Shown here: positions 1,389 through 46,704 of the stretch, one piece after another
Numbering within the stretch: position 1 is the stretch's first letter
Layout of the letters: every line of letters begins with the position of its first letter
NCBI GenBank assembly: GCA_964187785.1
Contig: OZ076414.1
Coordinates: 26,908,001 to 26,972,000 of the forward strand
Origin: Amphiscolops sp. MND2022
Taxonomy: Eukaryota
Length of the DNA stretch: 64,000 nt
Direction of reading: 5' to 3'
Notes under the pieces: generated by a model
The model's database searches: none
Told to the model about the DNA's origin: nothing
Seen by the model: only the letters and a program-made list of their open reading frames with translations
Program-made: the position numbers and the translations under genes

Positions 1389-1392
1389 GTAA

Positions 1393-3098
1393 TTGATTTC
1401 AGCAAGTCACTTTGCTCGCAAATGGTTAGTTATCGACTCCACTGAATGTTGGGGAGATTGGTTTCAACTGAGCCCAACTTGGCAAGTGTCTCCGGGTGTC
1501 CATCAGTGGTTATCCAAACATTCGACAAGGCTGGCTTCTTCGCACACGGTGTTAAGAACCCTTTCCGGTACGATGTCTTCAACTTCGCACACTCATGTAC
1601 CAGAAGGGGGCTGTATTTTTGACCGGATATACATCTATGCCCAATCGAAGTACCGGGTGCGTGTCTCCATTTTAGGCCCGATGACTACTAGTTGTGCTCT
1701 TCAGGCCATCACTGCTTGCGACCTCGACCCCAAGACTCTCTCAACGGTGTGCAGCGAACTCATTGCCAACTGGAGTGACGTGTTGGACTACATGACTAAA
1801 TTGGCACCAACATTAGAGATGCAACAATTTCGTAGCAAAGTGAGTGTGTTAGTAAATACTCGCACAAAACATCTCATATTTTCAAGCACTAGGTCTGATA
1901 TAGAAAAAAAGTCTAAGGTGATCATTTTTTCAGACTACCAATGCTTTCTTCTATTACAGCGGCAGAACTTTGAATTGACCGTCATCTTGGATGAGTTCTT
2001 CACGGTGAAGTTGGAATTTTTCTCTGGCCTCATCCGTGAGCGTTAGTGGCTTTCTACCTTCATTCAGTTCCAAATATTTCTGGAATTCTCGATCATCTCT
2101 GTTTAGACACAAAGTGCTTTGAGTGAAGCCTGCTTGGGAGAAGTGACATAATTTTCTGTACGTACGGACAGCTCTGCGAAACTATACCCAAACTCTGTTA
2201 GCGGACAATCCTCTCCGAGTGTGTACCTGCAGACACTGACTGGGCCTCATTCATCCAGCTGTCTGTCCAGACCCGCGCAAATTGTCCATCCGCGTCTTCT
2301 TGCATCGACTCAAAGTGAACTCTGATCTCGACAGTTCATGTTGGATCAAAGCCCAGAGCTACCTTAGTCAGCGAAAGGTGTCCACAGCAGACCTGGACTC
2401 TCAGACTGCTGCAGTTGAAGAGAAACTCACTCAAAAGCAAGGCTCGCAGTTACGTGGTTTTTCTGTTGGATAATGTGCTGCAAGTTGTTCGCCTCATTGA
2501 GGACGTAGTGCGCGGGATGGTCTATTTTGACCCGAATGTCTTGATGTCTCTTCCCATGGAACAGGTCTTGTTCTCCTTCACAGCGTTGCTCAAAAATTTC
2601 CGTCTACGCAGCTGGAATGTGTCTTCCCAATTGGATTGCCGAGTAAATGGAATTCGAGGGTTGTCATTGTCACACCTACAAGGATTTCAAGGACAGTCCT
2701 GGTTTGATCAGGACATGGACGTCCGGTTGGCTCCGCTCCCAGCCTTGCGAAGTCGGAAGAAATTGTTTCAATTGTTTCAACTGAGCTGTTTTTGGCTTAC
2801 CGAGACAAGCCCCGAAAGGCCTCGGATTGGCGTCCAGAACGTAGACACTTCTGATGCCCGTTGTCGGCTTTTTCTTGTTTTTCTCCCCACGCAGTCGTAC
2901 TTAGCGAATGTTCACAACCTGATGGTAGTTTGTACCACCAACTCAGCTATGACCAAGTGTCAAGAGATATGCAGCAAACTTGAATCCGACAGTATTGCAG
3001 CTGATCCTTGGGTTCACATTGATTCCTTTGGAAGGGCGCAGTTGTACAGGAACTTGAGCGTTACTCAGAAGTCGCTACTTCGGTTCAAGCTCCGCAAC
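1393..3098 (+). pseudogene. C-terminal part of the spliced antisense accessory gene of element C, copy 1
   Basis: Segments GCPSVVIQTFDKAGFFAHGVKNPF, AITACDL..WSDV..FRSK and RGMVYFDPNVL..FRLRSW..LSCFW..PWVHIDSFGRA align with the element A gene at 37488-39400. GT-AG intron at 1657-1704; donor at 1840. Confidence 0.8.
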
Positions 3099-4137: not shown

Positions 4138-5982
4138 TTAATTTCAGCAAGTCACTTTGCTCGCAAATGGTTAGTTATCGACTCCACTGAATGTTGGGGA
4201 GATTGGTTTCAACTGAGCCCAACTTGGCAAGTGTCTCCGGGTGTCCATCAGTGGTTATCCAAACATTCGACAAGGCTGGCTTCTTCGCACACGGTGTTAA
4301 GGACCCTTTCCGGTACGATGTCTTCAACTTCGCACACTCATGTACCAGAAGGGGGCTGTATTTTTGACCGGATATACATCTATGCCCAATCGAAGTACCG
4401 GGTGCGTGTCTCCATTTTAGGCCCGATGACTACTAGTTGTGCTCTTCAGGCCATCACTGCTTGCGACCTCGACCCCAAGACTCTCTCAACGGTGTGCAGC
4501 GAACTCATTGCCAACTGGAGTGACGTGTTGGACTACATGACTAAATTGGCACCAACATTAGAGATGCAACAATTTCGTAACAAAGTGAGTGTGTTAGTAA
4601 ATACTCGCACCAAACATCTCATATTTTCAAGCACTAGGTCTGATATAGAAAAAAGGTCTAAAGTGATCATTTTTTCAGACTACCAATGCTTTCTTCTATT
4701 ACAGCGGCAGAACTTTGAATTGACCGTCATCTTGGATGAGTTCTTCACGGTGAAGTTGGAATTCTTCTCTGGCCTCATCCGTGAGCGTTAGTGGCTTTCT
4801 ACCTTCATTCAGTTCCAAATATTTCTGGAATTCTCGATCATCTCTGTTTAGACACAAAGTGCTTTGAGTGAAGCCTGCTTGGGAGAAGTGACATAATTTT
4901 CTGTACGTACGGACATCTCTGCGAAACTATACCCAAAATCTGTTAGCGGACAATCCTCTCCGAGTGTGTACCTGCAGACACTGGCTGGGCCTCATTCATC
5001 AAGCTGTCTGTCCAGACCCACGCAAATTGTCCATCCGCGTCTTCTTGCATCGACTCAAAGTGAACTCTGATCTCGACAGTTCATGTAGGATCAAAGCCCA
5101 GAGCTACCTTAGTCAGCGAAAGGTGTCCACAGCAGACCTTGACTCTCAGACTGCTGCAGTTAAAGAGAAACTCACTCAAAAGCAAGGCTCGCAGTTACGT
5201 GGTTTTTCTGTTGGAATGTGTGCTGTAAGTTGTTCGCCTCATTGAGGTCGTAGTGCGCGGGATGGTCTATTTTGACCCGAATGTCTTGATGTCTCTTCCC
5301 ATGGAACAGGTCTTGTTCTCCTTCACGGCGTTGCTCAATAATTTTGCGTCTACGCAGCTGGATGTGTCTTCCCAATTGGATTGCCAAGTACATGGAATTC
5401 GAGGGTTGTCATTGTCACACCTACAAGGATTTCAAAGACAGTCCTGGTTTGATCATGGACATGGACGTCCGGTTGGCTCCGCTCCCAGCCTTGGGAAGTC
5501 GGAAGAAATTGTTTCAACTGAGCTGTTTTTGGCTTACCGAGACCAGCCCCGAAAGGCCTCAGATTCGCGTCCAGAACGTAGACACTTCTGATGCCCGTTG
5601 TCGGCTTTTTCATGTTTTTCTCCCCACGCAGTCGTACTTAGCGAATGTTCACAACCTGATGGTAGTTTGTACCACCAACTCAGCTATGACAAAGTGTCAA
5701 AAGATATGCAGCAAACTTGAATCCGACAGTATTGCAGCTGATCCTTGGGTTCACATTGATTCCTTTGGAAGGGCGCAGTTGTACAGGAACTTGAGCGTTA
5801 CTCAGAAGTCGCTACTTCGGTTCAAGCTCCGCAACTTTCTCTCGTCCTGGATCGTCCTCCGAGTCAAGTGTTGGGGATCGTTCCGTGGTACCGTGTCGTG
5901 GCTAATCAAAGAAGACCTATTTCGGCAATTTTCTCCACTGCTGAGATTTCCTAGACTTTTGAGCGGCTCGAATAAAGAATAG
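4138..5982 (+). pseudogene. Antisense accessory gene of element C, copy 2 (includes the native 3' end)
   Basis: Near-identical to 1393-3098; ORFs 4231-4791, 5253-5591 and 5344-5982. Confidence 0.8.
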
Positions 5983-20536: not shown

Positions 20537-21460
20537 TCATTTAACGTGATGATACACAGGAAGACCATCATCTTTCTTCAGTTTTTTCTTAGGAGTTGTT
20601 GACTTGCTACTGCTAGCCTGCCTCTCGGGTTTCTTCGGTTTGCCAGCACGCTTAGCACTAACGGCCTTCTCAACAGTTTTACTTGCCTCCTCTTTCGCCT
20701 TCCCCACAGATGAACCCGAGCTACTCCGGACAACAGAACTAGTCTTTGATCCCTGCTCGGCGCTTGATAAACGATTGACACGGTTACATTCCGAATCATG
20801 TTCGTCACTCAATCGCCGTCGCTTTGCCAGAAATTCACTATAAAGGCAACAAAAGGCTTCAATAAACGAGTCCACACCAGGGTCAGACAGAACTTTCCAC
20901 ACGTTGAAATCAGATCCAACAAAGAAAACTTCAGCATTGGAAATAGCTGCACGGACCAAACGCAAAGTATGCTCAATGAACAAGGGCTGATGAGAATAGC
21001 CGTCACTCAGGAAATAAGACTGAACAATCCTGAAACACAATTGAACGCACTCTTCAGTGAGCAGGCAACTACTCAAATCTATGGAAAATCAAGCATACTG
21101 GCGATTCGGCTCTCCAACAATCAGGCAACATAATTTGAAAACACGCAGCAAATGTCGTCGTGATTGAAATCCAAAATCGTCCAACAGATAACGACGCACA
21201 TCCGGAATTTCACTAGCTGAACGCTTCAAACGGCAATGCTGCGTTCTCTTCACAATGACGTACGCATTTTATTTGTCCACTGTAGCTTTAGACTCGTCGC
21301 GCGTCAGGGAATCACATCCCTCCAAAACGCCACATAACTCAGCAAACAAGTCGAAGCCAGAATTATCGTCACCTTTCAACATCAACTCTGGGCAAAAACA
21401 ACACAATCCTTTTGAACCACGGAAACGGATGCTAGCGCACTCTACCAGCAAAAAGGCAAT
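20537..21460 (-). pseudogene. 3' part of the antisense accessory gene of element B (duplicated fragment)
   Basis: ORFs 21269-21535 and 20537-21076, with a basic Lys/Ser-rich tail. Confidence 0.7.
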
Positions 21461-24929: not shown

Positions 24930-27900
24930 TCATTTAACGTGATGATACACAGGAGGACCATCAACTTTCTTCAGTTTTTTCTTAGGAGTTGTTGACTTGC
25001 TACTGCTAGCCTGCCTCTCGGGTTTCTTCGGTTTGCCAGCACGCTTAGCACTAACGGCCTTCTCAACAGTTTTACTTGCCTCCTCTTTCGCCTTCCCCAC
25101 AGATGAACTCGAGCTACTCCGGACAACAGAACTAGTCTTTGATCCCTGCTCGGCGCTTGATAAACGATTGACACGGTTACATTCCGAATCATGTTCGTCA
25201 CTCAATCGCCGTCGCTTTGCCAGAAATTCACTATAAAGGCAACAAAAGGCTTCAATAAACGAGTCCACACTAGGGTCAGACAGAACTTTCCACACGTTGA
25301 AATCAGATCCAACAAAGAAAACTTCAGCATTGGAAATAGCTGCACGGACCAAACGCAAAGTATGCTCAATGAACAAGGGCTGATGAGAATAGCCGTCACT
25401 CAGGAAATAAGACTGAACAATCCTGAAACACAATTGAACACACTTCAATGCATATTGGCTTATAAGGAAAACTTAGGCATTTTAGACACGTATATTTACG
25501 CGCACTCTGAAAGTTGTGTCTTGTAATGCTCTTCAGTGAGCAGGCAACTACTCAAATCTATGGAAAATCAAGCATACTGGCGATTCGGCTCTCCAACAAT
25601 CAGGCAACATAATTTGAAAACACGCAGCAAATGTCGTCGTGATTGAAATCCAAAATCGTCCAACAGATAACGACGCACATCCGGAATTTCACTAGCTGAA
25701 CGCTTCAAACGGCAATGCTGCCTTCTCTTCACAATGACATACGCATTTTATTCGTCCACTGTAGCTTTAGACTCGTCGCGCGTCAGGGAATCACATCCCT
25801 CCAAAACGCCACATAACTCAGCAAACAAGTCGATTCCAGAATTATCGTCACCTTCCAACATCAACTCTGGGCAAAAACAACACAATCCTTTTGAACCACG
25901 GAAACGGATGCTAGCGCACTCTACCAGCAAAAAGTCAAGCCGGTCAATAAACTCTCTGCAGCGGCTCCGAAACGTCGCCATCTCACTTGTTTTTGCAGCA
26001 ATCAGTCCCTTCCCAAAATCACAATGAGCCAGGAAATTGTCCTTGGGACAACAGAAAAGCATGAAATCTCCGCGTCCATATACTCTTTCCTTTCGTGGAT
26101 GCCCGGAAGACTTGACAGCACGCGTGTTTTCATCAAAAGACAGTATACAAGATTGCACAATTCACCATAACCCTGAAACGCGTAGTCACTACGTCTTCGT
26201 CTCAGCTTCGGCAATTGGCTATTAACTGAAACAAAGAAACCCCAGTATTGCACCATATCCCAATTAGAAGACCCAGTCTCACAACAAACAAGCAAAACCC
26301 ACCCCCCCCCCCCAGAATTACATAATCAAAACAATTATACTCACAGGTATCTAAGCATCAAGTGTAACAATCCGAAACGATACCCGATCAGACCGTCCTA
26401 AATCACAATAGAATCTATCACCCTCAACTGAAACAACAACACAAGAACGATACCCTAACGGTCACAGGAAAAAAACAAAAGACAACTAACTTGAAGATTC
26501 CAAAAAAAAAAGAGTCAAAGATAAAAGGTAACTACAACTAACACGGTCAGCTTGATTTTTCACATGAGGCAACCCAGTACAACGGATGTATAGGCAACGG
26601 ACCCCTGACGGATGCATTTGCGCAGCAGCACTCTGCCCTCAGTCCATTCCTCGTAGACAGCACTCTTCAACCTGATAACGACATAGTCCACCAAACTTGT
26701 CTCTTCCACCATTCCGAAGACATCCTGATGAGCCTGTCTCATGCATTGTAGAATCCCCAGTAAACTGGCGGTGCACAGTGAACCGCTTTCCATCGCTGCG
26801 ATTGTCCTCTATCACTCGGATCAGCAACGGGCTCGCACCACTGACACATAAAGGAAGACGCGCATTTGGCACACTGTTAACAAACTGGGCCAGAAGAACT
26901 AACTCGGATTTCGGCATTGTCTGATCCAATAATTCCTGCCCAATAGAAATTTTCCTCAAAGAAATATCCAACCAGCACACCACGCAGCGCTTAACGTCCG
27001 CATTTTTCTCGTAAAACAGCGCATACTCATATGTGACCCCACAGCACTAAGAACAAGACGCAGCACACGAGGCGCAAGCCCTTGACAAAGCAACGCCTGA
27101 AACAAAATCGCCACGAAGATCAAGAAGCTTTTAACAGACATATATTACATGGCCTCAAAAAGCAAAACAAAACCCACCGACCCACCAATAACATATTCAT
27201 CAATTATCCTTACCACAGTCGCAGTTCGAATTCAATTTAACTGGTATTCCGGAGTAGTTTCCCCCAAAAAAGCACGAAAACATGCCCAAAGACGTCGCAG
27301 TAGGGAGAAGTGGCCACCATTACGGAGCTACTCGCAAACACAAGAGATTATCGTCATAAATGGGACCTTTGACCCCACTTGAGCATGTTTGGGGGGCAAC
27401 AAGTCCTCGGGAAAAGGAAACCCTTCTGCCAGGTCAACAAACTGACGGGGCTTTGAACTCGGCAATTTGATTAGCTGACAACTCAATAGGCTCTAAAAGC
27501 CCATTATACACAGGAAGACTCGTATGCACTCTTTAGCATGCTTCCCGATTCCAGTGCCCATCCGAAGAGAAGTGTCGTTTGAATTGCCCTGCACCATGCG
27601 CTCTCATCCGCACATCTCGTTGACACACTCGGCAAAAGAAATACGTAGGGTCCCCGCACTTCGCACCACTCACGAAATCTTAGTGATCTCACGCAAAGAC
27701 ACCATCCGTGTATGTAACTGCTTGCGGCTCCCATAACTGCGCACTCGACGCTGACAACGATCTCCAATCTTTTGAGACAGTTTCGTAAATCCTGCAAACA
27801 GCACAATTTACATGACTCCAAAGGAAGAGAAACGACGAAGAACACACCCCCTAAGAAAAGCTACCGATTAACAACCGTACAGCACAAAATGCCAACATAC

Positions 27901-28850
27901 TTGCCTCAATACTCTGCACAGTGCGATTCTCCACCTGTGCAATCCTATGACAACCAAACTGAGCCAAATCGCCAGGGCTTAACGGAGTCCCGTCGGAGAC
28001 GGCTGCAAAACTTTCCCCACCACCTACACAGAAACTAGCTATCACAAATACTTGCACAGAAAAAAGAGAGAAGAAAAGCAGAAGAAAGCCCAGAACAACA
28101 AAACAATCCACAAACGATAGAACAGAATGAAATCATGTTGAACGAAAAAAAACAACTTGTCCAACCCAAAAGCTCCTGCAAAGTAGGAGAATGGCCACCC
28201 TTTCGTTGCGGAGGAGGAGTATTGAATTTCACGGACAGCTCCCGGGACAGCCCTGCTTTCATGCTGTCGGCAGTAATACCTTCGCCTCCCTCTGCATCAC
28301 CTACACCTTTCTTTGTGAACGGCGGATCCGCCTCGGCTCCTCGAGGCTCTTCATCAGCAGTATCGTCCGGCAGTGGGGAAAAAATTCTCTCAGGATCTCG
28401 TGAATCTGCAGGATCAACATCCGGAGCCAACTACAAAACAGCGGAATGAGGCTGCACGGAAGTAGCAAGACCTGATCCAGAAAGCACAGTCGTTCGAGCA
28501 GCATTGATGGACACAGTCGAGAACGCCTCAGTTATAGGAGGAAGCCCCACTGAAACTTCAGTCAGCCCAGCACTTGTAAAAGTGTTGACCCCGGGAAGAG
28601 CAATAGGTTGAGTTACTGAAAACCAAGATCTGGATTCAGACGCGTTGGGTATTCGGGTAAGACTACAAACGTTGATTCCCAAACCAATAGTACAATTACC
28701 CATGGAAGTCAGAAAGATTTTACCAACCTGAAGTAGAACGAGAAATTTCTACATCCGAGGCAATAACGTCATCGTCAGTATAGTTGAACGTTGTCTCATT
28801 CCCTCTGACAAATCCCGCGGCAGTACCAGGGGGAATAAAACCCTCGTCCA
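24930..28850 (-). pseudogene. Antisense accessory gene of element B (zinc-finger protein, possibly hAT-derived)
   Basis: S/P/acidic N-terminus (28035-28703); zinc finger YFFCRVCQRDVRMRAHGAGQFKRHFSSDGHWNRE at about 27545-27645; SGASPLLIRVIED (26639-26983) matches LGASPELIRLLDD in A; KGLCCFCPELML (25748-26158). Confidence 0.75.
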
Positions 28851-31720: not shown

Positions 31721-33221
31721 TGTCGCCATTTTGTTCGCCACTATAAGATTCTACTGAACTTTGTCGAGACATTTGTCTACCATTCTCCTGTATAAAACAC
31801 CTTTTCGAACGACTTTCCCATAATTTATGGCCATTATCCACTTCGGCGTTCCGTTGTAGCTCACCGGACCTCCTGTCTCCCATAGTGGAACTAGCCACAT
31901 TCGTTCTTTTCTGTAGCCCGACGGACCCTCGGTCCATTGTGGGATAATTAGCTCTCCCCTGCATTTCTAATGTATTTTGAATTGAAGGGAGTATTTTCTC
32001 AGTGATTGCGCTGCTGATCGTGTCTTGTATTTGAAAATTCAAACTAATTTTGATCTCGTTCAATTTCCTTGACATCTGAATTTATTCACTAATCATCCTG
32101 GTAGTGTCAATGGTAATTTCACTATTTTCTCTGCTGTTTGTATTTAGTAACGACCTAAAATCTTCTCCTATCACATTTGAACTTTGCTGTGGCCGATTAG
32201 ACCCTGAGTCCAAATAGGCCTCAGTCTCATCTGCATTGTTGTCTTTATCTTCTCTAGAATAACTCCCTAGCAGTATGTCAACGTTTTCTACGTCAGACAA
32301 CATGTCTAATTGTCTAGAGCGTCGCTCCTTTGCCTTTTGCTTGCGGGTAGAAGGCATTGAAACTTGAGTTCAGTCAACAATGAATTTGAAGATAATATTA
32401 TCAACAGAACAAAACTAAGCAGGTACAAGTGGTATCAAATCACAATAGAACAATTGTCTGGTTATGTGTATCATTTGAAAGCATATGAAATTCCGCGTCC
32501 CGCACTTTAAGTTTCCCTCTTTATATAGGTTCAGTTGCATGACACGCCCAAGTTTGCTGATCATGTTACTATGAATAGTAGCACCCTAGATGACATCATT
32601 TATCTAATAATAGCCATCATGACGTCATGGCAGAAGGACGGTTGGTTATATTAGCACTCCCTGGAAGAGGGGAAGTGAAAGGAAAAAAGGGGGGTCATAT
32701 CTAACATGACAATATATAATACAAGCATTATCCAATCAGTAAGCTATATTTTTATCATAAGTAAGCATTTCATGACTGTGACGTCAGCAATACTTAATAC
32801 TGCAGTGGACCTGACGTCCAATGAGCTACAGTAAATATGAACGCACTCTAATACTACTGGCTATTACAAATACGGACTGCGCGTCTAGTTGGCTTTAGCA
32901 CCGCCATACTTGAACGCGTTTCCTTTTCTTCTGCAAGTTGCTTTAGTCTAATTGCTTCAACTTTGCATCAATTTGTTAAACATATACATTGTATTGATCC
33001 GCATGCATAATTTTGAACCCAAGTATATTAGCACAAATTGTGGTTTATGAAACTAATAATACTGATAGTAAGTTTTGAATAATTAATTGGGTAATTCGGT
33101 AAGGCTCCGTGGACGTCGAGTCCAGTTCGTTAAATTGGCAGTACTCCTGGCATTGGGTTTGTATTATCACCATCTGCTGGGATTTGATAGTAATTTCCAT
33201 CGCAGGCGGCAGCCTGCGACA
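31721..33221 (-). repeat. 3' LTR of element A (about 1.5 kb)
   Basis: Termini TGTCGC...GCGACA (6-bp inverted repeat). 31721-32512 is similar to 45912-46704 in the opposite orientation. Contains ORFs 32082-32357 and 31629-32075. Confidence 0.8.
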
Positions 33222-33934
33222 GTCCCCTCGGGACAAGAAGAACTGTCCCGGTTTCTATTCCGGCAATGAAAGCTTCCCTCCTTCGTCGTCTTTCTGCATA
33301 AGTTTCGTTGCTGGTGGTTGTCGCTTCTAGGAAAGTAAGTGCGGACATTTCCCTGATTTGCTCGTAAGTCCGGCCACAAACAACACAGTCTCCAAAGTTG
33401 GCGAAGTTCGTTCGCCACATTTGACATTTGTTCGACACTCTAATACTAATTCCTTGTATGTGGGAATTAGTAGCACAATAGTTGTTCGTCACAATTATGC
33501 CAGAGTATTCACCTTCTGGATAACTTGGTCCCCTTTCGTGTAAAGGGGGCGATATAGGCGAATCAGGAATAGGTGGCAGCCCCGCACATTGACTAACCTC
33601 ATATCCGTTGGTACCGTCACGGACTGGGGGGCCCGCTCCCATAACCGAATAGTCGTAGTCAGCTTGTAGTAATTGCTCAATGATATCGTCACCAGGCCAC
33701 AGAGACGATGAATCGTCGCCAAAGCATTGTGTAGTATCAATAGTCTTTTGTCTGCCAGCAACGGAAGTTTCTGAGAAGGCCGGTTGTTCCCGGTAGCAGG
33801 CGATTACTTGAATGTCGCTATCATCCGACCCCGGCAGCGGATATTGAGTCAATTTCCATAGGGTCATCAGATGAGAAGTAACTCGGAATATCTAGTGGGG
33901 CTCGTAAATCATCAAGATAAAATGTTAGACTCAT
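33130..33934 (-). CDS. Small sense accessory ORF (about 245-270 aa, CxxC-containing) overlapping the PPT and U3
   Basis: ORF 33130-33867 is open for 245 codons. A probable true start MSLTFYLDD at 33934 is joined by one frameshift. A homologous remnant is present in element C. Confidence 0.65.
33222..33232 (-). promoter_or_regulatory. Putative polypurine tract (CCCGAGGGGAC) next to the 3' LTR
   Basis: Short G-rich tract directly before TGTCGC on the minus strand; the equivalent in element C is AATGGGGAG before TGTCG at 1201. Confidence 0.55.
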
Positions 33935-34999
33935 TGTTGTTCTATATCTGTTCGAGAAGATTTTCTTCGCATTTTTGAATTTGCAACTGCTCAGGCTGGG
34001 CTTAAGACAAAAATGATTTTCTCTCGCCGTATGGACTCCCGGTCCCCTCTCAATTGCGCGGGAATTTTCGGAGGGTAAACCCATATTTGATTCTTCCACA
34101 ACATTTCGGAAGTTTCCTTATAAGTTAGGCTATGATTTCCCGAATTATTCTCCCTTTTCATCTATAAAACTGGAGAGCTCTTGACAGTTGCTCTATTGTT
34201 TGCTTTGTCGCTGATCATCACTAGATAACTACCATTTAAGGGCCATCAAGCTTTGGTGATGATGCTTACTAACACTTCTCCAATATTATCACTCTGCTTC
34301 AAAGGACTTAAGGTCCACTGAGCGACAGCTAAAAATTGACCAATCACTATGTTCAGATAAATAGGTAGAATCGCAATTGATTTCCTCCAAATTATGAATG
34401 AAAGTATTAATGAAGAATAATAAGTAGAACTTTGAGATTGGTGAACAAATTTTTTTTACCGCACACAAAGTGTGAAGTGTTGAAAAAAAAACAAAATGAT
34501 TTCACTGGCAGGCTCCGTCCATGATAAGGGAGTATAATTAAGAGACTTAATTGGTGTAGATGTACTCTCACCATGGTAGAAAAGGGGTTAATTGGTGAGC
34601 CACGACTTCTTTTGATTGAGTAATAATTGTTGTCGAAAGTAAAATAGTTTAGTATTTCAAGTCGGTATTCGATCAATATATTAGTATATAGTATATTATC
34701 ACATTTTGTGCTTAACAGACTTTGTGTTTCTTATCCCCATAGTAACCCAGTCATTAAACTTCCTTCAATTGATTTTACATTCAAGTTCTCTAATCGACGG
34801 ATATTCTACTCTGTCGCCTCGACAACAACAGTTTCCAGTAGTAATCCTGCTTCTAATTCTTGTGGATTCCACAGCTTTAAACAACTCAAAGACCCTAGGT
34901 CTAACGAGCTTTAACAACAAAGCAGATTTGGTTGCCCTGGACTAGATTAAATACTTCTGGAAGCAAAATTCCGTTTTTCATCATGGAAAAAACGTCAGG

Positions 35000-37900
35000 T
35001 TGGTTCTTTCAGTGTTGTCTAAGCTAAACTTGATCAGGGTTCAGATTAGATTTTTGAACTTCCTCCATCGTGAAATGATTTCATTGAGAAACATTGGTTT
35101 TGAACCAACTTCCGGAAGATTTTCAAACCGCGGTAAAATGGATTTGTTTGCAGGAAGTGAACCGCGTAATTTTATCTCTTTTCATTTAGATAAAGAGCAA
35201 ACTGGCCAACCGCTCCAAGAAGAGAAACAAGTCTCAGAACAAGACATCTCTGAGTTAGATTCAACGGGTGCTGAGGATGCAAAGGACCAATCTCTAGTTC
35301 CAGTGCAAGAATCTACCACCCAAGATACGAACCAGATTTCCTCAGCAGGCCTTACTGACGAACTGATGGATATTCCGACCCTTGAGTGTACTGCTGATTT
35401 TTCCACAGGCGATAGCAACAACTCCTTTGGTACAACAATGGAAAATCCCGTCGTGGACCTCAAGTCTGATGAGCCTGACGCTAACGTCTCTACTCAAGAG
35501 ACAAGTGAAGCGTTCAAAGCCCAACAGGAGCTCAATTCCCCAGCTTTGACAAGTCTCCTGGCTAACAATGAGTCTGCTTTGCAAGAGTCTAGCAGTTCAC
35601 AAGAAAGCTGTCAGACATACTTCACTAGGCGCATGGAGGAGTTAGGGGCAGGTGACGCCACGATCCATATTCTCGAGGTGACCGTATTGCCCGAGAAACA
35701 GAGTTTCAGTGGTCACCTCGAGCTCCTGGTGACAATCAAGTGACCTTCAACGAAGTCGGATTCACTTTGTACCCCCTTGTCCATTTCCTGGACTCCGACC
35801 ACTCCTTCTGCAAGGATCCTCATAAGCCACGTGAGACTCCGCCAGTAAAGAAAACCAGCGTCATAGTTGACACTTCTGGACTACAGGAACACTCTCCCAG
35901 CACGGATCCAAAAGCTAATTACTCTCCCGCAATAGACGATGACGTCTTCCTAGCGGAAGGTGAGCAAGAACCAACTGTTACGGAAGGTCTTTCTGGCTAC
36001 ACTAGCGGAACTGATTTCTCCGTACGTTCTGGAGCTACTTCTGGTGACCAAGCTAGATCTACGTTAGAAGACGCCTTGGCCTTACCAGCTAAAGGTGGAA
36101 GAATTGCTCTAGTTGGGGTATCCGAATCCGATGGAGTAGAGTCAACAACTGCTGGAGAGACTAAAGAATCTGGCACCCACCAACTTAGCAGGTCAAGCCG
36201 AGCTTTGGTCAACCACTGCCTTCAACATGCCACTGCATACAGTTTGCCCAAGGACCACCTCACGATTTCCCTCAATTCGGAGCAGATGCAAACTATCCTT
36301 AGGGTGGTTGCCGATGAAAGTGCCCGTGCGTCCTATGCCATGATGGAGGACATAGTTAAGAGGGCGAGCAGGTTAACACTGGGACAGGGTTTAGAGGATC
36401 AGAGGAACCTGCATTCCAACTCATCTGTTGGAGGAAGTGTCTACCCCTGTTCTGAAGGAGAAACCCTACCGGGGGATTGTACTGGCAGAGAGGGTAGCGT
36501 CACTAGTGGGGCACTCCGCAGTCATAATGACTCCAATAGCATTGGGTACAGCTTTGAAAGGAACCCACCAAGCGTCATTGCCATTGCCAAACCCCCTGGT
36601 GGGGAGAAACGTTTACAGGAGGACCCAAAGTCCGCGGAGCCACAGACTCAAACTGAAAGCCCAGAAGCGCAAACCCTAGCATCCTTGAAGGCGGAGGCGC
36701 TCAAGGATCAGCAATCAAAAGGACGCAAATCCAAAGTCCCCAAGAAACCACAGACTACCCGTAGGCGAGTAACCAGAGCCTGTAAAAGAACGAAGGAGGA
36801 AAATTTTGAAGGAATGGCTTTGACTAGGACCTTGGTCTCTGGGCCCCTTGATCCCCAATGGAATCCTTACAAATTCTATTGCCAGATTTGTAAGGGAACG
36901 TCTCGATTTACGGGAAAGGTGCCAGAGAAATCCTTCGCCACTAGGCCACTGAGAGACACCTGAGAAGGGACCAGCGGTGGCGCTATGAACACCTTGGCAT
37001 CGAGGACCCCATTTCAAACGCGATTCACAATTATGTTCGCGGGAAGAACGGGAAAAATCTCACATCGTACCAATTGGAGCTAGAATTGCCGAAATTTATT
37101 GGAGCCCCTTTAATCGACATTGGAGAGAAATTCCCCTTTTATGAGGAATTTAAATTTATGGCTGGCTCTCAACACATGGCGTCTTCTTCCGCAAACCGAG
37201 CAAGGGTCCAGATCTCTGCCCTTGGACACTACATCCATTCTTTTGGTGACATCAAAGCCCTTAGAGGACTCTGGAAGGACATTGGTGTGGTTGTGAACCA
37301 CCAAGCCCTGTTTGCAGATTTCAACTGGGGAAAAGAACGGATTACAGTGAGTATCTCAGTATAGCTCATTGTACCTTGAGTCCATTTCCAATCAACTCCT
37401 GTGATAGTTAACATCCTATGTCCTAGCACCTATTCTTGATCTTTTGTTTGCTTTTAGGCACTATTCCACCATCTTTTTCTTCAGCTGATGGAAGACATCG
37501 GGAGCCATGTCGTTGAGAACGGACACTACACGCTTGAGTTCCAGATCAATGGAGTGTTTCTCAATCTGTATACTAGCTTCTGGCACGAAGAACAACTGGT
37601 CCGAGTCTTCTTAAAGCGGACTGGAAGGAAACAAGGGAAAACTCTTGCAGAATTAGGTTTTGTTTCCCATGCGATGGCCGCCATCTCCACTCGCCCTGGC
37701 ACTGTGGCTTGTCTCGGCGCCTCTCCTGAGCTCATCCGTCTCCTTGACGATTGTAAATTCTTCGACCACGGAGTCCAGAGTCCTTTCTGCCTTGACATCC
37801 TCTTAGTGAAAGCTCTCATGCACAAGAAGAAATACAGTGTTTTTGGTAGAACTGACTTCTTCACTGTACCTCAATTCCTGGTTATCAGTCTCAGTCGAAG

Positions 37901-39510
37901 CTTGGTCCTGGAGTGGACGCTCTTGGCACCTGAAATAACTAAGGTAGTTCCCTTTTGCATTATTTATACTCTTTTCCTACTACAAAGCGTAATCCGTTGG
38001 TTGTTTATAGGCTATCAAACCGTGCAAGCTCGAAGTCGTGAACCTTCCATAGATGTGCCAGGAAATCCAGACACACTGGTCTTCAATCAGTTCCTTCCTT
38101 AGTGCTAACGCCACTTCCCATGAGATGCATTCCGTGATCAATCAGGTTTGTTTCTTGTAGCTCAGGGGAACTTTAGTCTACTAAATAGGAGACCATAAAT
38201 CCGATTTAGATATGCAGCAAAGCCTTGAATGGACCATAATTCATGACGATCTATTCACCACTCGGCTGGAATTCTTGCACGAATTGATATGAGATTGTGA
38301 GTATAGTTCTTGGCGTTCCAGTACAAGTTTCCTTCCGGGGTTTGCATTTTCACATGTTTAGACGTCAATAGCTTCACTATCAGATTTGGAGGACAGCGAG
38401 ACAGGTCCTTTCACTACTACAGAGAGCTCTGCAAGTAATTGTTTGCGATCGCCAAACGATGTGTCAACGCTAAGAACTTCCCTCAGAAGCGGATTTCACG
38501 AAAATCCTTTACTTACCCATTGCTGAAGCCAAAGCACTCAATGTCACGGAGTTCCTATCCCGAATGAAGTTCGGAACAAAGTTCGATCATGCTTGTAAAG
38601 TCAAGGCGGAGGGAGAAAAGCATGACAAGAAGTACCAAAAGAGCCTCTAGAATCAGTCATCAAGTCTGTCAAGAAGGAGTTTGGTCGACTAGCGCGGAGC
38701 TACCTAGTTTACCTCCTAAGTGAGACCCAAAGTCTCAAGGGCCTCACCACAAACATTATCCGTGAACTGTGTGCTTTTGACCTGAACACGCTTCTGGTTG
38801 ATCCCTTGGAACTGGGTACATATTGCTTTGGCCAATTGTTCAGTAGTTTCCGTCTACGAGGTTACTATACCATTACTGAGGAGTCCCAATGCCTCGATGA
38901 GTACGTCACCTTTGTGGATGATCTTCGACAACGGTGTACTTGAAGGAATCAACCCACTTTCTTCATCCCTGATTCAATAGAGTTCCTGTTAGGACAAGAG
39001 ACCCTGCAGTCTCGGCCCCTCCTCCACAAAATCTTCCGGCTGAGTTGCCTATGTATCGATGAGCTCTTTGTAGAGCTCCCAGTGATCACGTTTTGGGATT
39101 TCAATTCGGACGACCCTACTAGTCAGCTGATTGACCTTATTCAACCTGTCCTGTCCTACTTCACTAATGTGGCACGAGGAGTGGAAGTCATGACTAGAGA
39201 AGAGTCTGTGTCCAAGTTTCTTGCACTGGAACCCACATTCGGTACTTCTGCACTTAGTGATGTTTACTGCCCATGGTTGAGCGTTGCCTTCTTTGGGAGA
39301 GCTCGGATTCTCGAGGGGTTGTTTCCTGCCAAGTCATGCCAGCGCGACGCCGGGTCCCCAAGCAAGTCCTGTGGAGTTGAGTCGATCGAACCGCCCAAGA
39401 CCATTTAAATTCCCCGAGGAAAGAAACACCCGTAAGAGTACTTCAAGTCGTGATCGCTCATCTTCTGGCGACACCCTCCATGCTTGTACTAGTGCCAGTA
39501 AATCTTAATT
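35000..39510 (+). pseudogene. Multi-exon antisense accessory gene of element A (disordered N-terminus, zinc finger, hAT-transposase-like body)
   Basis: ORFs 35000-35743, 35740-36963, 37074-37364, 37488-38102 and 39082-39408 join through frameshifts and phase-0 GT-AG introns (37347-37457, 37944-38010, donor 38146). Zinc finger FYCQICKGNVSIYGKGAREILRH*ATERH at about 36875-36960, reconstructed across a 1-nt frameshift. Confidence 0.82.
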
Positions 39511-39688: not shown

Positions 39689-41250
39689 CTAATATCTGTA
39701 TTCATCAGTGAAGTTGGGGGTGGGGTTAGGACAACGGTTATATTTCCCTCCTCTAGGACTTTCATTTTCCGCAGTCATATCTTCTTCATCATCTAATACT
39801 TCGGGCACGATAGTATCGCTCTCTCCTGATGATTGGTGGTCATCAAGCCAATCAATCGTGCTTTCTGAGGGTGCTTTTTCAAGCGGTTCGGAAATGCTAT
39901 TTTCATGTCGCCCGGTGGACCGAAAGTCCACATTGGTAAAAATTTCGTCTGGTGAGCTGGCGTTGTCCACAATACCATGAGAGGCGTCTGCGGTATCGAG
40001 ACGCGTGGGATATATGACTTCGTCGGTTGAATCGGGAAATTCTCCAAAATTGGTTTCCCACGTGATGACGTACAGGTCATCCTGCGGGATAATGATTTCA
40101 TCGTCCGGTTGTAAATTGCCTTCCGTTCTGATATCTTGTAGTACATTGTTCGGTTCATATTTGCGTAGTCTGATACGGTGTAAAAATTGCGTTTTGTTGG
40201 AATTGAGTTTTCTGACTATATAATTTTCATTCGGTAACGCTTTTTTCACAATATAGGGTCCTGTCCATCGATATTCGGCCAACGGAATTTTCGATCCTTG
40301 ATGGTCAGCAAAAGGTTGGAGTATAAAACAGTAGTAATTTTTTCTTAGAGGAGCTGTTTTGGCCTTTCGGTCGTAATATTCTTTGTATTTCAATTAGGAT
40401 TGCATGATGTTTTTCTTTGTCGAGTCTAGTAATATTTGCGTGCGTCTTTGAAATTCATCTGCAAAGTCTGTAGTCGGGAGGACCTTCGGGTTTGGATAAA
40501 GGCCCATTTTGTGATCTAGAATGTTGTATGGGATTCTTCCGTGGACGATTTTGGAAGGTTCACAGCCCAGGGTAGCGTGATAAGTCGTGTTGTAATTTAA
40601 TACAACTAAAGGCAAGTGTTTATGCCACTGTCGCCTGTAGTCCTCTGAGGCCATCTTGAGAATCGTTTCGAGACTAGCGTGAGTCCGCTCTAATTTGCCG
40701 ATGGTTTGCGGATCTTTTGTTGTTGCACATTTCACTGCAACTCCCAAAATTTGAGCAACTTCGGCTACTAATTTGGACGTAAAGGCTGTCCCCTTGTCCT
40801 TTATCAAGGTAGTAGGTAAGTAAGTATGTTTGGTCATTATGTCTATAATGACCCTAGCCGTATTTGTGGCTGAAGCGTCGGTGACTGGATATGCAAAAAG
40901 ATATCGTGAAAACACGTCCATTGCGGTTATGGTATTTTCGTATCCACCGCTTGGGGGCAGGTTTGGTAAAAAATCAAATTGCATTGCGTCTTCTGGACCT
41001 AAGTCCCATTCAGGCAGATTTAGTAGTTCAGGTGTTATGGATGCGTTTAGAATTCTTTTGTCTTTTATACAAATTTCGCAACCTTGAACCGATTTTTTTA
41101 CTATTGTAGCAATGCCCGGGTATTATAATTTTTGACGAATTTCTATGAGCATCTTGGATATGCCAGAGTGTTTATTACCTTTGCCGTGTAAGGATTCAAG
41201 CAGTTCTTGAAACAGATGTTTTGGTAATAGCACTTGATTGTATTTGACGG
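39689..41250 (-). pseudogene. pol: Integrase of element A (HHCC, DDE core, GPY/F motif)
   Basis: H..H..CxxC region at about 41060-41225; core 40394-40984 (DFLP..DKG..LERTH); WTGPY in 39689-40393. Confidence 0.92.
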
Positions 41251-41301
41251 ATCCCGTTCGTCAAAATACCGTCTAGAGATAATTTCATCCGTGACGGATA
41301 G

Positions 41302-43110
41302 TCAGTCCATTTGGCGACAGTATTGTTGGTAACGGTTATCTTGCAATAGGATGGTTTCTGAGTAGCTTTTTCTCAATGTTTTTAAGCGCAGTTGTTGTGA
41401 AATGACATCGTTGTTTTGTTCTACTGCTATAGAGTTCATGTATGACAGTTTTTGAAGTGTAGAGAGTTTGTGGTAATCACTTTTGCGTGTAGTGAATTTT
41501 TCGAATGAGATTTCGAGTAATTGGTTTGCTGGATGGTTCCTAGCGTCTTTCTTACATTGTAAAATTTGTTCCTCTGTTTCGTCGTACTCCTCTGTGTAAA
41601 CGATTTGTTCCTCTTCGGACACTCCGGCCGATTGGACGTGTAGTTCAATTGGTGTTGTAGGGATATCCTCCTTCATTCTGAAGATTAATTTCTCTTTTGG
41701 AGAGATTTCCAGACGTGAGAGGTAATCAGCGGCTGTGTTGTTTTTACCGGGAATATGTGCTATTGTGAAATTGAACTGAATAACATAATCACAAGCATTC
41801 CATAGTGTTGGCGCAATAATTTTTGTCTGAAAAAATCGCGTGACGGACTTGTTGTCTGTGAGTATAATCACCGGTTTTGGGGTTCCCCAAAAGATATATC
41901 CAAATTCTTTGAAGGCAAAGACGATTGCCAAGAATTCTTTCACGTAGATGGACATCTTCAATTGGGTAGAACTAAAGGTCTTTGATCCGTAAGCTACTGG
42001 TGCGAAAGATTTCCTCGTTGAGGTATAATTTTCAGAGGGATCGTCTTCGATGAGAACTGCATACCCTGCGGCCGAAAAACTGGCATCCGTCATAAGGGCT
42101 ATTTGTTTGTTTGGCAAGGGCTGTTTGAGTGCCAGTTCACAACATCGATCAAGAGCCTTGTTGATCTCGGTGAATTTTTCCAATAGGTCTGGTGTTACCA
42201 GGACTTTTTCATCTTTAGGGAGTAATTTGAAAAACGGTGTTAGTTTTTCTGATAGCCTTGAGATGTAATTCCGATAATAGTTCAGGAATCTTAAGTAACG
42301 CTGCAGTGCTTTCTTGGATTTTGGGAATTTTGTATTCTCTAGGAAGTTTTCGACCCGTGGTCTCTGTGGCTTCACTCCAGAAGGAGTGATGTTACGTCCC
42401 AGAAAATCAATTTCCGTTGCACCAAAGTGACATTTATGCATGGTAAATTTCAGACCAGCCTTTTGAGTGCACTGAAATGTGGCCCTCATGTTACTGATAA
42501 GTTGTTCGGCATTGTTGGCAGCGATGCCAATGTCATCTACATATTGGGCACATTGGTCTGCTTTGATGACGTTGTCCAAATATTCACGCATAAGTCTCGA
42601 AAAGGCCGATATGGCTCTACTAAGTCCTTGTGCCAAACGTCGATATGCGAAGGTTCTGCTGGCAATGTTGGAAGCAAGCATTTCGATGGACCTCTGGTCG
42701 GCCATGTGTAAGCAATGATATGCTTGCGAGCAGTCCAGTTTGCAACATAGTTTTTTACCAGCCATGTGTTGGGCTGCTTCTGTGAGTGTACTCACGGGAT
42801 GGTTTTTATTTATATAATCGTTAGAAATAAGATTATTGAATTTGCGCAAATCGACTAGCAGTCGTAATTTGCCATTAGGTTTCTTTTGGGCAAAAATTGG
42901 ACTCGCGTATTTGGAAAATGGGAGTGTGGTAATTATCCCGTAGCGATGTAGGAATGCTAATTCCACAAGGATGTCTTCCTTGAGGTTGATCGGTGTTGGT
43001 AAACTTTGACTATAGGCCGGGGAGTCATCTTTGGGCGTCAATTTGACCTTGAAGTCTTCGTTCATACCTATGTCAAATCGATGTCTTGAAGATGTCGTGG
43101 AATTCGACAA
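41302..43110 (-). CDS. pol: Reverse transcriptase and RNase H of element A (602-aa open frame)
   Basis: YASPIFAQKKPNGKLRLLVDLR, KLDCSQAYH, QYVDDIG; RNase H TDAS..KEFLA..LTDNK..AADYLSR. Confidence 0.95.
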   Translation of the reverse strand: MSNSTTSSRHRFDIGMNEDFKVKLTPKDDSPAYSQSLPTPINLKEDILVELAFLHRYGIITTLPFSKYASPIFAQKKPNGKLRLLVDLRKFNNLISNDYINKNHPVSTLTEAAQHMAGKKLCCKLDCSQAYHCLHMADQRSIEMLASNIASRTFAYRRLAQGLSRAISAFSRLMREYLDNVIKADQCAQYVDDIGIAANNAEQLISNMRATFQCTQKAGLKFTMHKCHFGATEIDFLGRNITPSGVKPQRPRVENFLENTKFPKSKKALQRYLRFLNYYRNYISRLSEKLTPFFKLLPKDEKVLVTPDLLEKFTEINKALDRCCELALKQPLPNKQIALMTDASFSAAGYAVLIEDDPSENYTSTRKSFAPVAYGSKTFSSTQLKMSIYVKEFLAIVFAFKEFGYIFWGTPKPVIILTDNKSVTRFFQTKIIAPTLWNACDYVIQFNFTIAHIPGKNNTAADYLSRLEISPKEKLIFRMKEDIPTTPIELHVQSAGVSEEEQIVYTEEYDETEEQILQCKKDARNHPANQLLEISFEKFTTRKSDYHKLSTLQKLSYMNSIAVEQNNDVISQQLRLKTLRKSYSETILLQDNRYQQYCRQMD

Positions 43111-43690
43111 GTAATTCCTCTATGCGAGAGATTTCGGCGGTTCGTAGCATAGAGTCTGCCCTGTCAAAATTGGACAAAAATTGTGGTCTTGACTCATGGT
43201 CATCTTGAGGACTGAGTTTCTCTAATTCTTGGAGATTGATGAGCTCGGACAAAATTCTTTTCTGGACTGGCGTATGATGCTGAGGATCCCCAGGGTCTCT
43301 TGGTGTGGGAAACCAGTAGTTTTCCTTGATGTCCTCAGGTTTTGTAGATTTGATCAGGCTACTCGCATAGTAAGCATCATTCTCTGGTTTAGCCTGCAAT
43401 AGGTGCCATGTGGTCACGGGGTCTATTGGTTTGACATATTTCATCTGTTCTAGTGTTAGGACAGTGAATTTAGCGACCTGTGTGCTCCTTTTGAGGGTGT
43501 AGGGACTGTCGGTAAAATTGTTCAGGTGGATTGATACTTGACCATTGGTCAAGGTGACTAGAGCAGCACAAAAGGCAAAATCGCCATCGTCACTGATGTT
43601 GTTGCTCGGTTGAAGGATCCCAGTAACTGTAGTGTTCTCGTACAGTTGTGAAGCCATTAGGACCGAGTGTCAGTCATTAGGTGGGATGGT
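43073..43690 (-). pseudogene. PR-RT spacer domain, possibly a degenerate dUTPase-like fold
   Basis: DVTIPPND..GILQP..AALVTL..IHLNNFTDSPYTLKRSTQVAKF pattern; no clear intact dUTPase catalytic motifs. Confidence 0.35.
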
Positions 43691-44239
43691 TACATCTTCC
43701 CTAACGCAAATGGGTTCCATGACGTTGGTATATTTGTGGTCAGCGGTCTTTAATTGCATGGAGAAGAAAGGGAAGTTCAGGACTCCTTGTCTCATGTCCA
43801 GAATAGTATTGTTCCGTTGAAGGAACGAAAGACCGATTAATGGACTAGTGAGTTTTTCCATGACTACAAATATCTCGTGGAATTCTATGTCGCCTACTTC
43901 AAATTTCAGCTCGACCGTGCTCTTGGGGGTCTCCAGCTGCCCATTAGCAACCATGATTTGGAAGCTGGGTGCCGGGCCCTCTTTGACAATAGACTGAGGG
44001 GCTAGTAATCGGATTTTACGTAGATCAGCTTCTGGGATTGCACTAGATAGTGCTCTCGTGTCTACAAGGCCATCTAATGTAAGTTCTCCAAAATCCATTG
44101 GGAAATTGAGCATACGGCGCCTATATTTGAGGCCAAGATTGGTTGTCAGCGGTACATAGTCTGGTTCCCCCTGTCTGGTGACTAGGGTGTTCACAAAGCG
44201 TGCTGCAACGGCTGTCGCCAAGGAGACCTGTGGACCCAC
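43670..44239 (-). CDS. pol: Aspartic protease of element A (repeated at 50326-50895 and 57071-57640)
   Basis: LVDTRA (DTG with Gly to Arg) and LIGLSFL flap/GxD-like motif. Confidence 0.88.
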   Translation of the reverse strand: MGPQVSLATAVAARFVNTLVTRQGEPDYVPLTTNLGLKYRRRMLNFPMDFGELTLDGLVDTRALSSAIPEADLRKIRLLAPQSIVKEGPAPSFQIMVANGQLETPKSTVELKFEVGDIEFHEIFVVMEKLTSPLIGLSFLQRNNTILDMRQGVLNFPFFSMQLKTADHKYTNVMEPICVREDVTIPPND

Positions 44240-44719
44240 ACGGTGAGATTCATCGTCAGCTACGGAGTGGGTCGTTTGATGAATGGGGTGAGTACCATGT
44301 TGCCATGGACAACTCGGGCCTTTGCAAGGACCGTGTTCAATGCTCGATCAGTTTCATAAGAATCTGCCTCAATGTTTTGGTTCGGCTTGTTAAAGTTATG
44401 GTAATAGTATAGATGATGTTGATTGTAGGAGTTAGCGTCCCAATAGGGGTCAAAACCATGGTCAGGATCAAAGTAATATGGGTTATAGTCATCAATGAGA
44501 GGTATTATAAGTCGTATAGTAGTAGTTTCGTTTTGTAGTCTGATGGACATAGGGTCCGAAGTGTTGGAAAATGTAGGAGGGGTCTTCACCTGCTGCTGCC
44601 AGTCAGCTAATGATGTGTCTTTAAGTGAGGTATAATATTCAGTATAATATATGTTTGGATGGTCAGATATTATGTTTCGCCGGCACGGAGTTTTTCATTT
44701 ATTTGGAGTCGTGGCAAAT

Positions 44720-45830
44720 CTAGTTTTTTGAGTTTTTCAAAATAGAAGTTGTTTGTTTTTTTTGGGCTTCGTTGTTACTTGTGGACGCCTCCTCAGTTTT
44801 AGAATCCTCTAGTTTGAGGTTTTTGGGCTTGAGGTGGGCTCCTGCGCATTTCCAACATCGTTCCGCCGGGTGGTTTGTTTTGCCGCAAGTTGGACATTTT
44901 GGATCTTTTTTCTTGGTATCCTGCCCGTCATTGCGGCGTTGCTACTCCTTTCTTTTGAGTTTGCGACAGTCAGCTTTGACATGGCCGGGTTTTTTGCAAT
45001 AGTTGCAAGTAATAGTTGGGTCTATTCCCGAGGAAAGAGGGCCAGTTCCCGGTCGTGTTGCTGTGGGGGCAGTGGACATTTTTGGTACTGGAATGTCGTC
45101 CCCCTCCTCAAGTCCATTGAGCTCTAGTTCTCGTTTTAAATGAGTGACAGTTTCGTCATAAGAAGCGTTTTCGAGTCTAGCCATATTGACTGAGCGTTTC
45201 AATTCCGGCGGCAATTTGGCATATAGAAGACTATCGGTCATTGGCTGGGCGTTTTCGGCAAACGCTTTTTCGGCTCGTTGATTGAGTTTTTCAAGGAAGT
45301 TTCGCAATTTCATGGTTTTTTGGTCAAACACCAATCTATGCCATTTGTGTTTGGCGGTAACCTGGGACTCAGGTTTGACGTATTTCCGACGATGTCTTCC
45401 AAGGTTTGCCTGTTTGCCGTATTGATGTTACGGAAAGTTTGTGGGGCATTCTTTTGTAAAAATGAATGAAAATGATTCATTTTCATTGTTTTGGTCATAT
45501 CAGGTTGCATTTTGATCATTGTGTGAAAGAGATCTTCGAAGAGTTCGAATTTCTCTGACTTTCTGTCGAACGCCAGTGTAGTTGTGCTAACTGGGCGTAC
45601 CGTCAGTGTTTGAGCTGATGGACGGTTTTTCATGCCAACTAGTACTTCTGCCAGTCGGTGAAGGGGGTCAGAAGAAGTAGTTGGTGTTGTATCCTCAGGG
45701 ACCTGGGGGGGGTTGTGTCCTGAGGTTCGTCAATGTTGGAATTTTGGTGTTGCGGAGGTTCTCGGGATTGCATGGGACGTCCAGTGAGAAATTCAGGAAC
45801 CATATGTGGGGTAGGTTTGGCTCCTGTCAC
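44720..45830 (-). pseudogene. gag: gag of element A with two CCHC zinc knuckles (repeated at about 51377-52486 and 58122-59229)
   Basis: KFELFEDLFHTMIKMQP, LLYAKLPPELKRS, CNYCKKPGHVKADC, CPTCGKTNHPAERC. Confidence 0.9.
44723..44729 (-). promoter_or_regulatory. -1 ribosomal frameshift slippery heptamer A-AAA-AAC before the gag stop
   Basis: Minus strand reads TCA AAA AAC TAG, and the -1 frame continues LDLPRLQINEK. The same heptamer occurs at 51380-51386, 58125-58131 and in element B at 15572-15578. Confidence 0.7.
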
Positions 45831-45832
45831 CA
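45819..45832 (-). promoter_or_regulatory. Primer binding site TGGTGACAGGAGCC directly after the LTR CA
   Basis: ...CGCGACA|TGGTGACAGGAG. One mismatch from the complement of the common eukaryotic tRNA-Leu 3' end (TGGTGTCAGGAG), so the primer identity is inferred. Confidence 0.75.
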
Positions 45833-45911
45833 TGTCGCGTTTTTGTTCGCTACTATAAGATTCTACTGAACTTTGTCGAGACATTTGACTACTATTCTCC
45901 TGTATAAAACA

Positions 45912-46704
45912 AAAAGTGCGGGACGCAGAATTTCATATGCTTTCAAACGATACACATAACCAGACAATTCTTCTATTGTGATTTGATACCACTTGTACCT
46001 GCTTATTTTTGTTCTGTTGATAATATTATCTTCAAACTCATTGTTGACTGAACTCAAGTTTCAATGCCTTCTACCCGCAAGCAAAAGGCAAAGGAGCGAC
46101 GCTCTAGACAATTAGACATGTTGTCTGACGTAGAAAAAACTGACATAATGCTAGGGAGTTATTCTAGAGAAGACGAAGACAACAATGCAAGTGAGAATGA
46201 GGCCAATTTGGAGTCAGTGTCTAATCGGCCACAGCAAAGTTCAAATGTGATAGGAGACGATTTTAGGTCGTTACTAAATACAAACAGCAGGGAATTAGTG
46301 AAATTACCATTGAAACTACCAGGATGATTAGGGAGGAAATTTCTAATCAGATGTCAAGGAAATTGAACGAGATCAAAAATAGTTTGAATTTTCAAATACA
46401 AGACACGATCAGCAGCGCAATCACTGAGAAACTACCCCTTCAATTCAAAATACATTAGAAATGCAGGGGAGAGCTAATTATCCCACAATGGACCGAGGGT
46501 CCGTCGGGCTACAGGAAAGAACGAATGTAGCTAGTTCCACTATGGGAGACAGGGTGTCCAGTGAGGTACAACGGAACACCGAAGTGGATAATGGCCATAT
46601 ATTATGGGAAAGTCGTTCGAAAAGGTGTTTTATACAGGAGAATAGTAGACAAATGTCTCGACAAAGTTCAGTAGAATCTTATAGTAGCGAACAAAATCGC
46701 GACA
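45912..46704 (+). repeat. Inverted fragment of an A-family LTR (repeated at about 52568-53360 and 59311-60103)
   Basis: Reverse complement of 31721-32512; ORFs 46064-46327 and 46461-46727; ends CGCGACA. Confidence 0.9.

Follow-up and report, generated by a model that had tools for sequence, protein, structure and literature searches.

An intron-containing antisense gene with a predicted hAT-like transposase fold in Ty3/Gypsy retrotransposons of an animal genome

The window analysed here, a 64-kb stretch of a 1.07 Gb genome, consists almost entirely of nested, decayed Gypsy elements. Wnt genes are present in the genome, which marks it as that of an animal. One of them, element A, lies on the minus strand, with gag-pol (zinc knuckle, protease, RT, RNase H and integrase) at 39689..45832, a primer binding site (TGGTGACAGGAG, 45821-45832) complementary to the 3' end of tRNA-Leu(CAG), and a 1.5-kb 3' LTR of the form TGTC...GACA at 31721..33221 (minus strand) that includes the start of gag and the end of a second accessory ORF, orfX. 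Pfam matches on that strand run in the order gag, protease, RT, RNase H and integrase, as in Ty3/Gypsy LTR retrotransposons, and the TG...CA LTR, short TSD and tRNA-type PBS of such elements are also found. Between protease and RT, a conserved domain of ~195 aa (43076-43669, minus strand) has no Pfam match and may be dUTPase-like. The gag end of element A is spanned by three tandem units of ~6.7 kb that are 98% identical (43601-63730), and within this region lies an 870-bp inversion (45833-46704) flanked by 79-bp inverted repeats.

The initial annotation placed about 4.5 kb of coding sequence between integrase and the PPT of element A, on the strand opposite gag-pol. This stretch does contain an antisense accessory gene, in five exons (35138-39408) and in a copy with frameshifts and stops, and it also holds orfX in sense orientation (33133..34000, minus strand), which that annotation had overlooked. 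Exon 1 (35138..37346, this and the following exons on the plus strand) encodes a conserved N-terminal peptide, a low-complexity acidic region of ~480 aa, a basic patch, a zinc finger of the pattern C-x2-C-x16-H-x5-H and a helical region; in the window it carries two frameshifts and one stop. Exon 2 (37458..37943) encodes 162 aa, exon 3 (38011..38145) a helical stretch of 45 aa with one stop in the window copy, and exon 4 (38215..38296) 27 codons plus 1 nt, here with one stop and an offset acceptor. Exon 5 (38362..39408) is all-helical and encodes ~376 aa in intact copies, with frameshifts and stops in the window. The full protein comes to ~1,300 aa, and the gene has up to four introns.

When the exon borders of one intact copy were projected onto 21 A-type copies, window A among them, 77 of 80 donor sites read GT and 76 of 80 acceptor sites AG, and the exceptions all lie in copies that carry frameshifts or point changes. 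The lengths of exons 2-4 are constant across the A-type copies (162, 45, and 27 codons plus 1 nt), and all exons are open in 5/21. Two of the four predicted junctions are joined in nature, in genomic copies that have lost introns by exact in-frame joins: L015 is without introns 2 and 4, and L021 and L023 are without intron 4. B-type elements have intron 1 in common with the A-type and do not have intron 2. These features, taken with the selection described below, support a spliced, selected, antisense accessory gene, as judged from sequence. Intron 1 is in frame and stop-free in some families (L088:757-3360, L091, L132:6389-8032, L145), giving open frames of 430-910 aa, and its retention could yield a second product. 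Upstream of the ATG (34990-35200), non-coding motifs recur across families (CATCAG/GTTGGTTC, CTTGATCAGG, CTTCCTCCATCGTGAAAT and TTCCGGAAG), possibly marking a ~40-nt 5' intron or promoter elements.

Homologous segments occur in the same window in elements B and C, each antisense to its own integrase and RT, and the amino-acid motifs on which the initial annotation based the homology are present at the positions claimed in all three elements. In tblastn comparisons against 40 codon shuffles, A and C matched at 33, 42 and 45 bits (shuffled maxima 24, 22 and 27), and A and B only marginally (23.5, 13.5 and 28.5 bits; shuffled 20.8, 23.1 and 20.4). The B segment (24930..28850, minus strand; profile matches 25038-27682), from a distant clade, is nevertheless clear with family profiles that include B-type relatives (E 1e-12 to 1e-60), and it lies antisense to the plus-strand RT and integrase (21623-24004). 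The 3' part of the B gene occurs again at 20642..21415 (minus strand) in an internal segmental duplication. The C segment (1393-5982) is homologous and antisense as proposed, though it is not one 4.5-kb gene: it comprises two tandem partial copies of exons 2-5, the first decayed (1458..3080) and the second at 4203..5814 (both plus strand), in units 98% identical (354-3102 and 3099-5839), and exon 1 was undetected by profile comparison. Beyond the second copy lie integrase (6701-7085) and RT, in minus-strand orientation. Element C also contains a perfect 134-bp palindrome without spacer (11429-11696).

Exon 2 of A, used as a query against the genome, returned 6130 first-look candidates, of which 150 were scored, figures that should not be read as copy numbers. 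Among 20 A-type regions of 20 kb each, picked by hand from the candidate list for variety, LTR pairs were found in 16, with 88-100% identity, lengths of 1.5-1.7 kb and TGTC...GACA ends. Exact 5-bp TSDs flank 11 of 13 (one has a mismatch and one was not assessable), and in young copies the pol frames are open over 1,690-1,738 aa. The PBS is 12 nt long and complementary to tRNA-Leu(CAG); of three loci scanned, one was confirmed as a tRNA. The elements are laid out as LTR, gag-pol, antisense gene, a ~1-kb spacer, sense orfX and LTR. This plan recurs in two whole B-type elements (LTR identity 99.6-99.7%) and in one element of a third subclade, so that the gene is spread over distant clades: identity of B-type to A-type elements is ~65% in RT, ~49% in IN and only 15-18% in exon 2. 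No consistent polyA signal was found in the spacer. Copies ~14 kb apart (G000:C13:16516615-16544871 and C7:62497440-62527289) suggest head-to-tail arrays of elements with common LTRs. A large tandem array of ~236-296 bp units at G000:C8:35589244-35641273 carries a tRNA-Leu-like 3' motif, which has 835 matches genome-wide.

The gag frame starts 126-216 codons inside the LTR in all seven elements examined; since gag begins there, each 3' LTR and solo LTR carries a gag start. It reads through the PBS, and the end of orfX lies ~30 codons into the LTR (U3), so the LTR is protein-coding at both ends (window 31721-33221; L011, L013, L017, L132 and L134). The product of orfX is ~270 aa long and acidic with a C-terminal CxxC motif; the ORF is under constraint (dN/dS 0.08-0.47), and the window copy has one frameshift. 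In the B clade a different ORF of 250-340 aa stands in its place. Neither the accessory gene nor orfX has a Pfam match above cut-off in scans of 24, 14 and 49 proteins. Peak 19-residue hydropathy is 0.6-1.7 in 20 sequences, five orfX copies included, and the accessory protein has no clear transmembrane segment. With the large gene antisense, this low hydropathy and no env Pfam match, the elements do not resemble the env-bearing, errantivirus-like class.

The accessory gene is under purifying selection, as the initial annotation had supposed. In pairwise Nei-Gojobori comparisons of 18 pairs of natural copies no measurable dN/dS ratio reaches 1: comparisons between families give 0.03-0.18, close copies 0-0.37, the low-complexity part of exon 1 0.18-0.24 and one pair of decayed copies 0.42-0.64. 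In many pairs dS is saturated, and dN there is 0.07-0.49. Its position is also fixed. Integrase lies antisense just downstream of the gene in 31/32 elements, and likewise at 52/54 loci, some of them redundant, with a stop-to-stop spacer of 124-350 bp in 14/14. Inverted repeats in 14 accessory copies are at chance level (longest 8-12 bp, against 8-9.8 bp in shuffles); the TIRs of a hAT transposon are thus lacking, and without them an 8-bp TSD is not placeable.

The claim of vertical inheritance stood for the deep split between A and B and failed within clades, where the gene is exchanged as a module. In trees that omit segments covering <60% of the profile, distances for the accessory gene correlate with those for IN or RT (rho 0.69-0.83; permutation maximum 0.23-0.40), a correlation that owes its strength to the A/B split: for A-type copies alone rho is 0.10-0.36, and of 11-18 supported splits the poorly resolved pol trees recover only 2-4. 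Between L027 and L044, divergence is 5-8% in LTR, gag, IN and orfX but 27-29% in the accessory gene; in this clean swap and in that of L136/L143, IN dS is 0.13-0.27 and accessory dS is 1.8 or saturated. Because a deep-split correlation coexists with clean swaps within A, the gene is old in this Gypsy group yet mobile as a module. Co-evolution of the gene with the LTR was considered and rejected: kinship confounds the rank correlations (0.39-0.67), and one clean swap speaks against the two being locked together.

The best fold match of the predicted accessory protein is the DNA transposase Hermes. The RNase H-like core predicted for exon 2 matches Hermes at about residues 149-268, and the predicted model of exons 4 and 5 aligns to residues 342-609, so that two separately predicted parts fall on consecutive parts of Hermes in the same order. 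Hhalign and HMM comparison with the Ac-type hATs of this genome gave no signal, PDB sequence-profile searches were empty or returned chance matches, the ESM Atlas gave no usable match, and a word-index search of exon 2 against longer proteins gave nothing. Foldseek and the second-look VIA with exons 4 and 5, and exons 2 and 3 against a viral library, gave nothing clear, and PF14291 had no match anywhere, controls included. Among the matches listed in the profile searches, relatives came solely from ENA/JGI, and the most divergent relative, used as a query, found only further Gypsy-borne copies among those examined. There may be a resemblance to Buster-type hATs.

The accessory protein likely has a transposase fold like that of hATs and appears to lack the catalytic aspartates, a probable origin that the initial annotation had not recognised. 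The catalytic residues of Hermes, which we take to be D180, D248 and E572, were placed by reading strand ends against the Hermes sequence, a register that would put the two Asp positions at residues 29 and 86 of exon 2. In this inferred register the positions hold E/A/Q/V/I/L and S/L/T/R/C/V/A, with no D in 35/35 copies, and D occupies both in 0/83 library relatives; no conserved Glu follows the C-terminal helix, so the DDE triad of hATs is not seen. The CxxH motif is absent, there being no conserved C or H at 109-113. Trp W153 is kept in 34/35 copies and lacks the preceding Arg of the hAT RW motif; it and the N-terminal zinc finger are placed as in hATs. The finger (C-x2-C...H-x5-H) is conserved at 90% or above, has no zf-BED Pfam match and pairs weakly with a hAT finger in hhalign (E 0.15). 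The hAT protein Kat1 loses its activity when these residues are mutated, according to the part of that report available (PMC4763223); since the catalytic D/D/E residues appear to be absent, the accessory protein is probably not a nuclease. Five hATs resident in the genome (L103, L104, L105, L124 and L125) have open frames of 597-697 aa with intact D, D and E.

Based on the above, we propose that the five-exon antisense gene between pol and the 3' LTR encodes a catalytically dead hAT-type transposase that likely serves as a nuclear DNA-binding regulator of the element's expression, a reading to which we give a probability of about 0.5. Under this scenario, the source would be a hAT-like transposon or a hAT-derived host gene that inserted backwards into an ancestral element. 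Because the gene is antisense, its introns would stay in the genomic RNA and survive reverse transcription, so that the whole gene is copied; it would be transcribed from the ~1-kb spacer, across which it stands head-to-head with orfX, and then spliced. Cutting chemistry and transposon ends would have been lost, the zinc finger and transposase scaffold retained, and a long acidic low-complexity N-terminus gained. The protein may then bind a short motif of many families in trans and recruit host chromatin or transcription factors, by which the elements stay transcribed.

Selection still acts on the zinc finger, whose putative recognition helix is conserved, on the scaffold, on the basic patches beside the finger and on the acidic arm, and there is perhaps an even chance that these make up a nuclear DNA-binding adaptor. 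The nuclear role suggested in the initial annotation would be in keeping with the zinc finger, with the basic patches and with the absence of a clear transmembrane segment. Since swaps can replace the gene and leave the LTR as it was, the target is more likely a motif common to many families and bound in trans than one specific to a family. CpG sites show weak decay (transitions 0.017 versus 0.013 per site, 15 LTR pairs), and since it is not marked, a VANC-like anti-DNA-methylation role is not favoured; activation, or shielding from histone or small-RNA silencing, is.

Several alternatives were weighed. The donor may instead have been a different protein of the RNase H fold that also has a helical insertion (a MULE- or P-type transposase), or the Hermes match may be chance; we consider this unlikely given the collinear match of the two predicted parts and the hAT-like placement of zinc finger and W153. 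It is similarly unlikely that the dead transposase acts at integration, binding cDNA/LTR ends or target chromatin and steering or importing the integration complex. The scaffold of a transposase serves to hold the ends of the transposon and its target DNA, integrase neighbours the gene, and nuclear import has been proposed for plant antisense ORFs in the accessible part of one account (PMC7264820), but the swaps show that the gene travels apart from integrase, a separate mRNA gives no obvious route into particles, and the acidic N-terminus would better suit a regulator. Less likely again is an RNA-level factor, either a CERV/Rev-like export or packaging helper or an antagonist of small-RNA silencing that uses the RNase H-like fold. 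The part of the CERV report available describes a spliced accessory protein needed for export of an animal LTR element's genomic RNA (PMC10309623), the finger weakly matches a C2H2 family below cut-off (E 0.0002-0.07), and DNA methylation looks weak in this genome; however, the best predicted fold match is a DNA transposase, and no known RNA-binding family is similar in Pfam scans.

We think it improbable that the protein or its antisense transcript represses the element or competing hATs. An antisense transcript can pair with genomic RNA as dsRNA, as the available text of PMC7264820 notes, and hATs with 600-700 aa open frames are at hand, yet the gene-bearing families are young and abundant (LTR pairs 99-100%; the candidates counted above), selection falls on the protein, and divergence from resident hATs is too great for a profile match. 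The refuting case named in the initial annotation, independent DNA-transposon insertions in each family, has only the transposase-like predicted fold on its side and is refuted by the fixed position and orientation, with chance-level inverted repeats, missing catalytic Asp and, among the copies examined from the most divergent query, exclusively Gypsy-borne ones pointing the same way.

Like plant Retand/Tat, Grande and RIRE2 and fungal Boty, these are Gypsy elements with a long region between pol and the 3' LTR that holds a conserved antisense gene. For the plant and fungal antisense ORFs (TRP28, PF04195) a nuclear regulatory role has been proposed in the portions available of PMC11963269 and PMC7264820. 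The present gene differs in its animal host, its ~1,300 aa, its up to four introns and the accompanying second sense ORF, and PF04195 had no match in our Pfam scans, so TRP28 of Retand/Tat is not represented. The accessible part of PMC7264820 states that the plant ORFs have no similarity to other TEs and are of unknown origin, unlike this gene with its traceable, predicted DNA-transposase fold.

Hermes and other hAT transposases, together with domesticated hAT/ZBED proteins, are among the closest known systems: the accessory protein has the conserved Trp and, as predicted, a zinc finger followed by an RNase H-like core, a helical insertion and the C-terminal helices. The accessory protein departs from hAT transposases in its lack of the Asp pair, CxxH, RW motif and TIRs, its retrotransposon carrier, its long acidic N-terminus and the absence of profile-level similarity; it probably descends from a hAT without being a member of the transposase family. 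CERV of C. elegans Cer1, as described in the part of PMC10309623 available, is a nuclear accessory protein of an animal LTR retrotransposon made from a spliced mRNA, as is predicted here; compared by description, not sequence, it differs in acting in RNA export, our gene being antisense with a transposase-like predicted fold. VANC of VANDAL/MuDR is likewise a TE-encoded accessory factor repurposed from another protein, an anti-silencing one in the available portion of PMC13547354; it belongs to DNA transposons and is MAIN-related, unlike the present gene, which swaps independently of its LTR in a genome with weak CpG decay. Captured non-env genes are also carried by animal Gypsy-like elements such as the rotifer LTR elements, whose ORF3s are a GDSL esterase and a DEDDy nuclease (PMC5408684), and planarian Burro (PMC6431247). 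In the parts of these two papers available, those genes are enzymes or polyprotein domains, and no antisense, intron-bearing, transposase-derived gene is described. We found no report of this element type in the open literature accessible to us; an entry may exist in Repbase, Dfam, GyDB or subscription journals, which lay outside that scope.

Origin and function of the antisense accessory genes of LTR retrotransposons are stated as open questions in the accessible part of PMC7264820. In the present case, from an animal, the origin can be traced, likely to a nested DNA transposase, and the question becomes testable through the many young families, the copies that have naturally lost introns and the swapped cassettes. 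The case also shows how a retroelement can carry a gene with several introns in antisense orientation, and annotation pipelines would miss its exons or mislabel them as host genes. More tentatively, and at somewhat less than even odds, a class I element took and disarmed a class II transposase and kept it with its introns, now essential as a chromatin or transcription factor that acts in trans, the cassette being exchanged between families. If true, one transposon was domesticated by another, suggesting that dead transposases are recruitable by other transposons as well as by hosts, and the cassette may have aided Gypsy expansion in a gigabase animal genome.
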